Below, piece after piece: positions 3,542 through 4,991 of a DNA stretch of 64,000 bases. Source of the DNA: Escherichia phage NHEP11; sequence record PQ511149.1; one strand, given 5' to 3'. Each line of letters opens with the position of its first letter. Positions within the stretch are counted from its first letter, which is position 1. Both the position numbers and the translations under genes were made by a program. Under the pieces are notes generated by a model. That model worked only from the letters and a program-made list of their open reading frames with translations, was not told where the DNA came from and ran no database searches.

Positions 3542-4090
3542 TTAACGAGCCCATTTGATAATTTCTGTAATCAAATTATTACGTTCGCTTGCATTAAATC
3601 CTATAACTTTGTTAGCACCATCATGATTAAGTAATTGATATGTTTGGATTTTGTTATGAATTGCAAACTCTTCAAAATGTGAAATGACTGTATTAAAACC
3701 GAATGAAGACAAAGTAATAAGGTCGTCTTCAAAACTTTCAGTCATTTCGTTACGTGTTAAAATAATTGTGAACACATCATGGTTTTGGCAAAGACGAACA
3801 TAATCCTGTTCATAAACATCAAGAACCGAGTCCGCATCTTGTCGAATACGTCCATAAACCCAGTTACTAATATATCCACGGTCTAACAGATAAATCTTAG
3901 TAGGGTCTAAATAATTCAACATCGTTTCGAAACAGCCAACTTCATTTCGAGACTTAACATCAAAACGTCCATCAACTGTTCGTTTAGGGAAATCAATTTT
4001 TACATATCTTTCACTAATTTCCATTATGTCATTAATGAAAGTTGTTTTACCAGCATTATCCGGGCCATCTACTAAAATAATTTTAGCCAT
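3542..4090 (-). CDS. P-loop NTPase, nucleoside/nucleotide-kinase-like
   Basis: 182 aa; Walker A GPDNAGKTT at N-terminus and a later LLDRGY motif, as in dNMP/thymidylate-kinase-type folds; sits where T4 has beta-gt. Confidence 0.6.
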   Translation of the reverse strand: MAKIILVDGPDNAGKTTFINDIMEISERYVKIDFPKRTVDGRFDVKSRNEVGCFETMLNYLDPTKIYLLDRGYISNWVYGRIRQDADSVLDVYEQDYVRLCQNHDVFTIILTRNEMTESFEDDLITLSSFGFNTVISHFEEFAIHNKIQTYQLLNHDGANKVIGFNASERNNLITEIIKWAR

Positions 4091-4091
4091 T

Positions 4092-4991
4092 TTATTCCTC
4101 GATTACGACATCTTCGTATTTAGGTATATTATACGGTGAAGAAATTAAAGCATTAAAGTAGATGAACTCACCAAGACCTGGATGGAATACTTCTTCAGGA
4201 TTTTCGAAATATTGAATCTTCGGCCGTCCTTTAAGAATTTGATAGTACTCAGTTTTAGTTGGATTAAAAATTCGAATCAGCGCTTCTTCAGGATACTTAT
4301 TTCTGTCGAAACTATTATTTGGATCGGTTATATAAAGCGGTTGACCTAATTGAATTGCACATTCAACCACTTGTTCAAAACGATAGCATGGGTCACTAAT
4401 TCGAAATGGATGAAAAATACCATCTAGATGAATAGGAGCCAAATCACCTACAAAACGCTGCATGATGGAAGGACGTATAACTTTCTGGGTTACGATAATC
4501 TTATTACCATCTGCACCAGCGTTAACCAGCACTTCTTTTTGACGTTCATTCAACACAGTAGTTTGAAGTGAACGATTAACCGACAACATATCGGTTTTTA
4601 AGAATTCGTCAATATAAAAACGTGGTTTATTAGGGTCTGCAGTGATATTGAAATTGAATTCTACGTCAAAAGTGCCGTCATATCCAGTGATATCTGTGAT
4701 TAGAAAATCACAATCATAATAATCAATTAATGAATCAACCACAAATTCATTTTCAGACCAGAAATATTTACGAGTGTTATACGCGTTATCTTTATACCAT
4801 AATGGAACAAACTTAAATTCTGGGAAAAGACGTTCACATTCTTTAATATCAGATGCATTACGTGGATATGTAATCACATCACCTGGATTAGCACGGTGCA
4901 AATGAAGTTGGAAGTTTCCATCCTTAAGGATAGCATACTGTCCAGTTTCATAAGACCGCATACTCAAGATAGGTGCGCGGAAAATAGCCAT
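4092..4991 (-). CDS. hypothetical protein; candidate DNA-modification transferase (by position only)
   Basis: 299 aa; ATG start overlaps the stop of the upstream hydroxymethylase gene (coupled); no domain recognised. Confidence 0.5.
   Translation of the reverse strand: MAIFRAPILSMRSYETGQYAILKDGNFQLHLHRANPGDVITYPRNASDIKECERLFPEFKFVPLWYKDNAYNTRKYFWSENEFVVDSLIDYYDCDFLITDITGYDGTFDVEFNFNITADPNKPRFYIDEFLKTDMLSVNRSLQTTVLNERQKEVLVNAGADGNKIIVTQKVIRPSIMQRFVGDLAPIHLDGIFHPFRISDPCYRFEQVVECAIQLGQPLYITDPNNSFDRNKYPEEALIRIFNPTKTEYYQILKGRPKIQYFENPEEVFHPGLGEFIYFNALISSPYNIPKYEDVVIEE

Follow-up and report, generated by a model that had tools for sequence, protein, structure and literature searches.

A GT-B-fold glycosyltransferase and a thymidylate-kinase-fold protein of Escherichia phage NHEP11 as probable members of an RB69-like cytosine-arabinosylation cluster

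The window analyzed here, a stretch of 64,000 nucleotides (nt) from Escherichia phage NHEP11 (PQ511149.1), is 98–99% identical to Mosigvirus genomes and belongs to this RB69 group. Downstream of uvsX it carries genes for a P-loop kinase of 182 amino acids (aa) and for a 299-aa protein, followed by a gene for a thymidylate synthase (ThyA) homologue (Table 1). The gene order is 41–40–uvsX–182-aa gene–299-aa gene–ThyA homologue in NHEP11 and 41–40–uvsX–segA–b-gt–42 in T4. An earlier note on this DNA, made from the letters alone, had placed the two genes at the position of the T4 β-glucosyltransferase (β-GT) gene, and the two orders agree with it, though the T4 slot also holds segA. We propose that the pair probably represents the last two members of an RB69-like cytosine-arabinosylation cluster, comprising a candidate arabinosyltransferase that acts on 5-hydroxycytosine (5hoC) and a predicted nucleoside-monophosphate (NMP) kinase.

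Both open reading frames (ORFs) are real genes rather than chance ORFs, because full-length homologues were found in phage records (343 of the 343 matching records for the 182-aa protein and 340 of 348 for the 299-aa protein) and because their AlphaFold models are confident. The stop codon of the ThyA homologue gene and the ATG of the 299-aa gene overlap by one base, the shared A of TAATG, and the two genes are translationally coupled, as the earlier note had described. A single base separates the 299-aa stop codon from the 182-aa ATG, and GAGGA lies 6 nt 5′ of that ATG. A scan for promoter and terminator consensus sequences returned no more sites than were found in shuffled sequence; co-transcription was therefore deduced from gene packing alone. 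Between the kinase gene and uvsX, a spacer of 99 bp (3443–3541) contains TTAAAC and TATAAT separated by 18 nt (gttttaaacgctgtataacccttagtatataat), a pair that was not listed by the consensus scan. It resembles a T4-type early promoter for uvsX, which would terminate the arabinosylation transcription unit at this point.

The 299-aa protein matched no Pfam family (39 members scanned), no NCBIfam family and no PDB entry by profile, and its only assignment was to PHROG 3891, 'unknown function' (E 3e-155), so that its previously noted lack of a recognizable motif holds at the sequence level. Since these searches were empty, comparison of folds was the only informative route. An AlphaFold model built from 39 diverse homologues was obtained with a predicted local distance difference test score (pLDDT) of 94.3 and a predicted template modeling score (pTM) of 0.89. 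Foldseek, the check that had been suggested for distinguishing a GT-A or GT-B fold from other folds, retrieved MshA (3c4q, E 1.9e-6) as the top match, followed by GT-B-like UDP-GlcNAc 2-epimerases (E ~2e-6), and the model has two Rossmann-like domains that superpose on GT-B enzymes of known structure. The protein is 97.7% identical to RB69 ORF047c+046c, a gene that is split in the 2003 record by a sequencing error and forms a single ORF in NHEP11, and it shows ~45% identity to DLP3 gp79 and ~47% to Thanatos TH1_063 in alignments covering at least 98% of its length. More than 130 clusters of full-length homologues, ~300–380 aa long, were found in phages and metagenomes. Lee et al. (NAR 2026, PMC13326640) named RB69 gp46:47 'arabinosyltransferase 1' and gp45 'nucleotide kinase', and reported 6kih and 3c4q as the top structural matches of gp46:47, the same as those of our model. 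By full-length homology to these named members, the 299-aa protein belongs to the transferase 1 group of the 5hoC glycosylation cassettes. RB69 gp46:47 and gp45, DLP3 gp79 and gp78, and Thanatos TH1_063 and TH1_064 are orthologues of the NHEP11 pair, with the same position beside a 5-hydroxy-dCMP (5hodCMP) synthase, the same predicted folds and the same best structural matches (6kih and 3c4q for the transferase, Tmk, thymidylate kinase, for the kinase), and we found no substantive difference between them and the NHEP11 proteins.

Membership of two better-known transferase groups was rejected. The 299-aa protein was not assigned to GT4 (Pfam Glycos_transf_1), as none of the 39 members matched Pfam and an hhalign comparison of the family with a bona fide phage GT4 enzyme, DLP3 gp77, was non-significant (probability 0.1%); it is also ~70 residues shorter than the GT4-type GT-B transferases (MshA, BshA, PimA, sucrose-phosphate synthase and RB69 ORF003c/HY126 PDB 9iqz). 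The GT-B fold is common to the 299-aa protein and to the T4 α- and β-glucosyltransferases, but there is no sequence similarity to T4 β-GT (best BLASTP E 6.1). Its predicted acceptor is the 5-hydroxyl of 5hoC and not a hydroxymethyl group, and the sugar would be arabinofuranose (Araf) made by phage enzymes.

The nature of the acceptor base follows from the neighboring gene. The ThyA homologue is ~98% identical to the enzyme in PDB 9iqc, 9ir2 and 9iqu (E 4.8e-161 for 9iqc/9ir2), which we infer to be the hydroxylase of phage HY126, and only 25% identical to T4 gp42. Where E. coli ThyA has Asp169 and Asn177, the homologue has Asn and Asp, respectively (D169N, N177D). The same two residues occur in Thanatos, DLP3, Dhakavirus and the contigs L003 and L004, whereas T4 gp42 has Asp at both positions. 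The D169N signature marks flavin- and O2-dependent 5hodCMP synthases (Lee et al., PMC13326640), and in NHEP11, too, transferase 1 adjoins a ThyA homologue with this signature. For RB69 gp48, 5hodCMP synthase activity has been shown experimentally, with the oxygen derived from O2, and nuclear magnetic resonance (NMR) and mass spectrometry (MS) identified α-Araf and β-Araf-(1–3)-α-Araf on 5-hydroxy-dC, ether-linked to C5, in RB69-type DNA. Given the D169N signature of the neighboring enzyme and its ~98% identity to PDB 9iqc, we conclude that the acceptor base in NHEP11 is 5hoC and not 5-hydroxymethylcytosine (hmC).

The earlier note had read the neighboring gene as a hydroxymethylase, the 299-aa protein as the best positional candidate for the hmC sugar transferase and the 182-aa protein as a kinase for a modified nucleotide or a sugar. 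The transferase part of this reading is supported by the GT-B fold and the RB69 orthologue, and the hmC part is contradicted by the 5hodCMP synthase alongside. A full version of that scheme, in which a gp42-type hydroxymethylase supplies hmC, the 299-aa protein replaces β-GT and transfers a pentose to it, and the 182-aa protein phosphorylates hm-dCMP or the sugar, would agree with the slot shared with T4 b-gt, with the fold common to the T4 α- and β-glucosyltransferases and with a 2018 analysis of RB69 that proposed arabinosyl-hmC. However, that assignment is now regarded as an error, the sugar ether is placed directly on C5 by NMR and MS, the synthase next door takes its oxygen from O2, and the sugar kinase is the 561-aa protein encoded further upstream. 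The published nucleoside structure and the D169N enzyme in the window thus refute hmC as the acceptor, and we give this scheme practically no credence.

To consider which enzyme adds the first arabinose, we compared the 299-aa family with the protein RB69 ORF003c, which was proposed as the arabinosyltransferase in 2018 and is essentially the protein crystallized as 9iqz/9ir0. Its GT4-type gene lies at RB69 2520–3620 (locus L008), between rIIA.1 and a topoisomerase gene and ~20 kb before the window start. By tblastn, GT4 genes of the ORF003c/9iqz type were found in 211 phage records, with one copy in Mosigvirus and two in Acinetobacter phages, and none was detected in Serratia, Shewanella, Klebsiella, Yersinia and Proteus phages. 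By contrast, the 299-aa family was present in 348 of the 348 matching records. The reported number of arabinoses is one in LC53 and Thanatos (Serratia and Shewanella phages, respectively), two in the Mosigvirus phages RB69 and Bas46 and in NP, and three in the Acinetobacter phage DLP3, and the GT4 copy number of 0, 1 or 2 tracks these chain lengths of 1, 2 and 3. There is thus one GT4 gene fewer than there are arabinoses, which leaves the 299-aa enzyme as the sole candidate for the base-proximal sugar. Deletion of 'Aat' in Bas46 gave a viable phage, in line with this reading. The distribution would thus lend independent support to the published arabinosyltransferase 1 assignment, and the sugar-chain length of a phage could be predicted simply from its genome, by counting the GT4 enzymes, one for each additional arabinose, encoded besides the small GT-B enzyme common to all.

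Several observations weigh against this assignment. In the accessible literature, arabinosyl transfer by this enzyme is a prediction. When UDP-Araf or UDP-arabinopyranose was supplied, single DLP3 transferases showed no activity on 5hoC-DNA ('data not shown'), and Lee et al. (PMC13326640) could not tell whether the first arabinosylation takes place at the level of the mononucleotide or of DNA. Members of the transferase family are strongly acidic (median isoelectric point (pI) 5.0, net charge −12), as opposed to T4 β-GT (pI 9.05, +6), although this speaks only weakly against DNA binding. Finally, formation of UDP-xylose from UTP and xylose-1-phosphate was reported for Thanatos TH1_063 (47% identical), which did not modify C-DNA, dCMP or dCTP, 5hoC substrates not being among those tried. 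Together with the many UDP-GlcNAc 2-epimerases among the Foldseek matches (E ~2e-6), the UDP-xylose produced in vitro by TH1_063 would suit a family of sugar-nucleotide enzymes, either UDP-pentose pyrophosphorylases or GT-B-like UDP-sugar epimerases or hydrolases, an alternative that we consider very improbable.

The 182-aa protein is 98.9% identical to RB69 ORF045c. Its AlphaFold model (pLDDT 88.4) has a thymidylate kinase (Tmk) fold with a Tmk-type P-loop (G-x-D-x-x-G-K-T) and a D-R motif; the P-loop (G-P-D-N-A-G-K-T), the D-R motif and further Arg and Asp residues are invariant in 22 family members. Against its placement as a Tmk-like enzyme, the protein scored only 16.7 bits with TIGR00041 (cutoff 83.25) and did not match Pfam Tmk (PF02223). 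In hhalign, only residues 1–25, containing the P-loop, aligned with E. coli Tmk; mapping of base-recognition residues onto E. coli Tmk was dropped, as the alignment of the kinase family failed beyond the P-loop. When 1.84 billion representative proteins were searched by profile, only 45 clusters were retrieved at E ≤ 1e-10, so that the family is small and specialized. The earlier note had described the protein as a P-loop kinase additional to gp1, and the window indeed encodes a separate T4 gp1 homologue, to which the 182-aa kinase is unrelated: a profile search of PDB with the 182-aa protein gave no match to the gp1 structure 1dek. The pathway role proposed for the 182-aa kinase is nevertheless analogous to that of gp1 in the T4 hmC pathway. 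The earlier reading of the protein was roughly right; a role as a sugar kinase was rejected, since the cluster already has such a domain in the 561-aa protein and the fold points to an NMP kinase. The strict association of the 182-aa kinase with 5hoC clusters argues for a preferred substrate other than dTMP.

The transferase and the kinase have nearly equal distributions (348 and 343 records, respectively, in the same genera), and the synthase, transferase and kinase co-occur both in distant metagenomic contigs and in the genomes of ~345 phages. Kinase and transferase adjoin a D169N synthase in Thanatos (062–063–064) and DLP3 (080–079–078), and the order is permuted to kinase–synthase–transferase in Dhakavirus. 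Two distant metagenomic contigs (355 kb and 122 kb) carry a D169N synthase, a transferase and downstream ORFs that match the kinase profile at 99% probability. The reading frames of the cassette usually overlap. Rhizobium phage RL38J1 has the same trio but uses hexoses (table in Lee et al., PMC13326640); the kinase is therefore predicted to be associated with the 5hoC nucleotide rather than with arabinose. Most simply, the three genes would form a self-sufficient cassette that makes 5hodCMP, phosphorylates it and glycosylates the base. One difficulty for this reading is that RB69 gp159, a gp1-type kinase, converts 5hodCMP to 5hodCDP in vitro, which makes the proposed role of the 182-aa kinase redundant in NHEP11, yet an intact copy of its gene was present in all 343 matching records, a retention that is not fully explained.

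Taken together, we favor the following pathway. The upstream ThyA homologue would convert dCMP to 5hodCMP, a step shown in the literature, and the isomerase, the bifunctional kinase/uridylyltransferase and the HAD phosphatase would provide UDP-Araf, by steps partly shown and partly deduced in the literature. These three genes lie in the upstream part of the cluster, beside the DNA polymerase gene; the bifunctional 561-aa protein matched Pfam NTP_transferase at residues 3–99 and gave weak APH/kinase matches at residues 308–409. The 182-aa protein is predicted to be an active Tmk-fold NMP kinase of the three-gene cassette that most likely phosphorylates 5hodCMP to the diphosphate, after which host Ndk and the phage polymerase would bring the nucleotide into DNA. 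It would duplicate an ability of the gp1-type kinase in T4-like phages and may be the sole enzyme able to do so in unrelated cassette-bearing phages. The 299-aa GT-B enzyme would then attach the first Araf to the 5-hydroxyl of 5hoC through an ether linkage, most probably on newly replicated DNA like the T4 glucosyltransferases, and a separate GT4-type enzyme encoded elsewhere, of the RB69 ORF003c type, would add the second arabinose.

Alternatively, the 299-aa enzyme, produced in constant proportion to the 5hodCMP synthase to which it is translationally coupled, could arabinosylate free 5hodCMP, with the 182-aa protein as a dedicated NMP kinase for the bulky arabinosyl-5hodCMP and polymerization of the glycosylated dNTP by the phage polymerase. 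If true, this route would explain the second NMP kinase bound to the cassette, the inactivity of single transferases on 5hoC-DNA and the acidity of the transferase compared with T4 β-GT. The kinase is strictly kept with the transferase although gp1 handles 5hodCMP, and the synthase, transferase and kinase frames overlap in every lineage examined. To our knowledge, however, all characterized phage DNA sugar modifications are post-replicative. Moreover, the third DLP3 arabinose is added on DNA in the same study that left the pre-replicative route open (PMC13326640), the synthase and a gp1-type kinase alone put 5-hydroxy-dC into DNA, so that 5hoC-DNA is available as an intermediate, and the negative in vitro result could reflect inactive protein. 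We regard transfer to the mononucleotide as unlikely.

A further alternative was raised by relatives of the kinase. Proteins of eight representative clusters (314–357 aa) combine the Tmk-like kinase domain with a DNA-glycosylase domain of the MBD4-type HhH-GPD class (E 3e-21 to MBD4). These fusions have an invariant D-K-E-L at the catalytic Asp and always adjoin a D169N synthase or a transferase homologue; the glycosylase could be a repair enzyme for deaminated 5hoC or a hint of a kinase working at DNA. Combined with the inactivity of single transferases on 5hoC-DNA (PMC13326640), they would fit a 182-aa protein that works on or with DNA, either as a base kinase like the 5-hmdU DNA kinase that acts in thymidine hypermodification or as a partner helping the transferase to reach a flipped-out 5hoC. 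On the other hand, NMP kinases have this fold and these conserved motifs (a P-loop with Asp and a D-R motif), a hydroxyl does not have to be phosphorylated to accept a glycosyl group, and RB69 DNA carries no base phosphate. The 182-aa protein has no glycosylase domain, no stand-alone MBD4-like domain was found in the window or in any fetched locus, and the fusion may merely join two co-selected functions. A DNA-acting kinase is therefore quite improbable, and we retain the 5hodCMP kinase as the preferred reading.

Table 1. Genes of the NHEP11 cytosine-arabinosylation cluster and related features
Feature	Position	Strand	Basis
182-aa thymidylate-kinase-fold P-loop kinase (predicted); RB69 gp45/DLP3 gp78/Thanatos TH1_064 family	3542–4090	−	
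299-aa GT-B-fold glycosyltransferase (predicted), 'arabinosyltransferase 1'; RB69 gp46:47/DLP3 gp79/Thanatos TH1_063 family	4092–4991	−	
5-hydroxy-dCMP synthase, thymidylate synthase homologue, flavin/O2 dependent	4991–5707	−	PDB 9iqc/9ir2 match, signature residues
79-aa protein, RB69 gp49 position	5749–5988	−	ORF list; PHROG 8601 'unknown function'
391-aa peptidase-U32-family protein, RB69 gp50	5985–7160	−	Pfam PF01136, E 7.5e-11
133-aa HAD-type phosphatase, RB69 gp51/HY126 AfhF analogue; Araf-1,5-P2 to Araf-1-P	7202–7603	−	PHROG 1238; TIGR01689 capsule-biosynthesis phosphatase, E 1.9e-13; literature assignment
561-aa bifunctional sugar-1-P nucleotidyltransferase and kinase, RB69 gp52:53/AfhE analogue; to UDP-arabinofuranose	7588–9273	−	Literature assignment and Pfam
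211-aa arabinose-5-phosphate isomerase, KpsF/GutQ/KdsD type, RB69 gp55	9455–10090	−	TIGR00393, E 2e-32; KdsD, E 7e-31
T4 gp1-type dNMP kinase, RB69 gp159 equivalent	56918–57652	−	PDB 1dek, E 2.5e-91
Kinase–glycosylase fusions in relatives	L009 6001–7074; L010 127–1092; L013 1446–2390		

Other genes near the cassette were also examined. The 79-aa ORF and the end of the U32 gene share 4 bases, and the 79-aa protein is missing from the cluster as found in Dhakavirus and DLP3. The U32 gene itself lies a short way upstream of the O2-dependent 5hodCMP synthase gene. Characterized non-protease U32 proteins are anaerobic hydroxylases, such as RlhA (ho5C in rRNA), TrhP (ho5U in tRNA) and UbiU/V. The phage protein has a C-terminal CX4CX3CX2C cluster and is at least 80% identical across genera in which the transferase is only 47–70% identical. 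It was found in 221 phage records, with facultative anaerobes as hosts, and was absent from Dhakavirus and from all 57 cassette-bearing phages of Acinetobacter, a strict aerobe. It may be an O2-independent C5 hydroxylase, a proposal based only on Pfam family membership and host distribution; pairwise comparisons with E. coli RlhA, TrhP, UbiU and UbiV were not significant, and Lee et al. (PMC13326640) listed RB69 gp50 as a 'sugar or heterocycle reductase'. In distant contigs, Flavodoxin_2 or FMN_red genes adjoin the D169N synthase cassettes (L004 4739–5293 and L009 7068–7613), which fits a flavin-reductase partner for flavin-dependent hydroxylation; no such gene was found in the cluster of the window.

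The system to which the NHEP11 genes belong is already published, having been known from 2018 onward and resolved in 2025–2026. Read against that work, the earlier note is partly supported: it was right on the transferase, the assignment of which was re-derived correctly from sequence alone, roughly right on the kinase, and wrong on hmC and the hydroxymethylase. What stays useful concerns the first transfer step, whether it takes place at the nucleotide or the DNA level, and the Tmk-like kinase tied to the cassette. A large group of T4-like phages is protected by arabinosyl-5hoC against the glycosylase Brig1, restriction enzymes and several types of CRISPR-Cas, and many of these phages are candidates for therapeutic use against E. 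coli, Klebsiella, Acinetobacter and Serratia.
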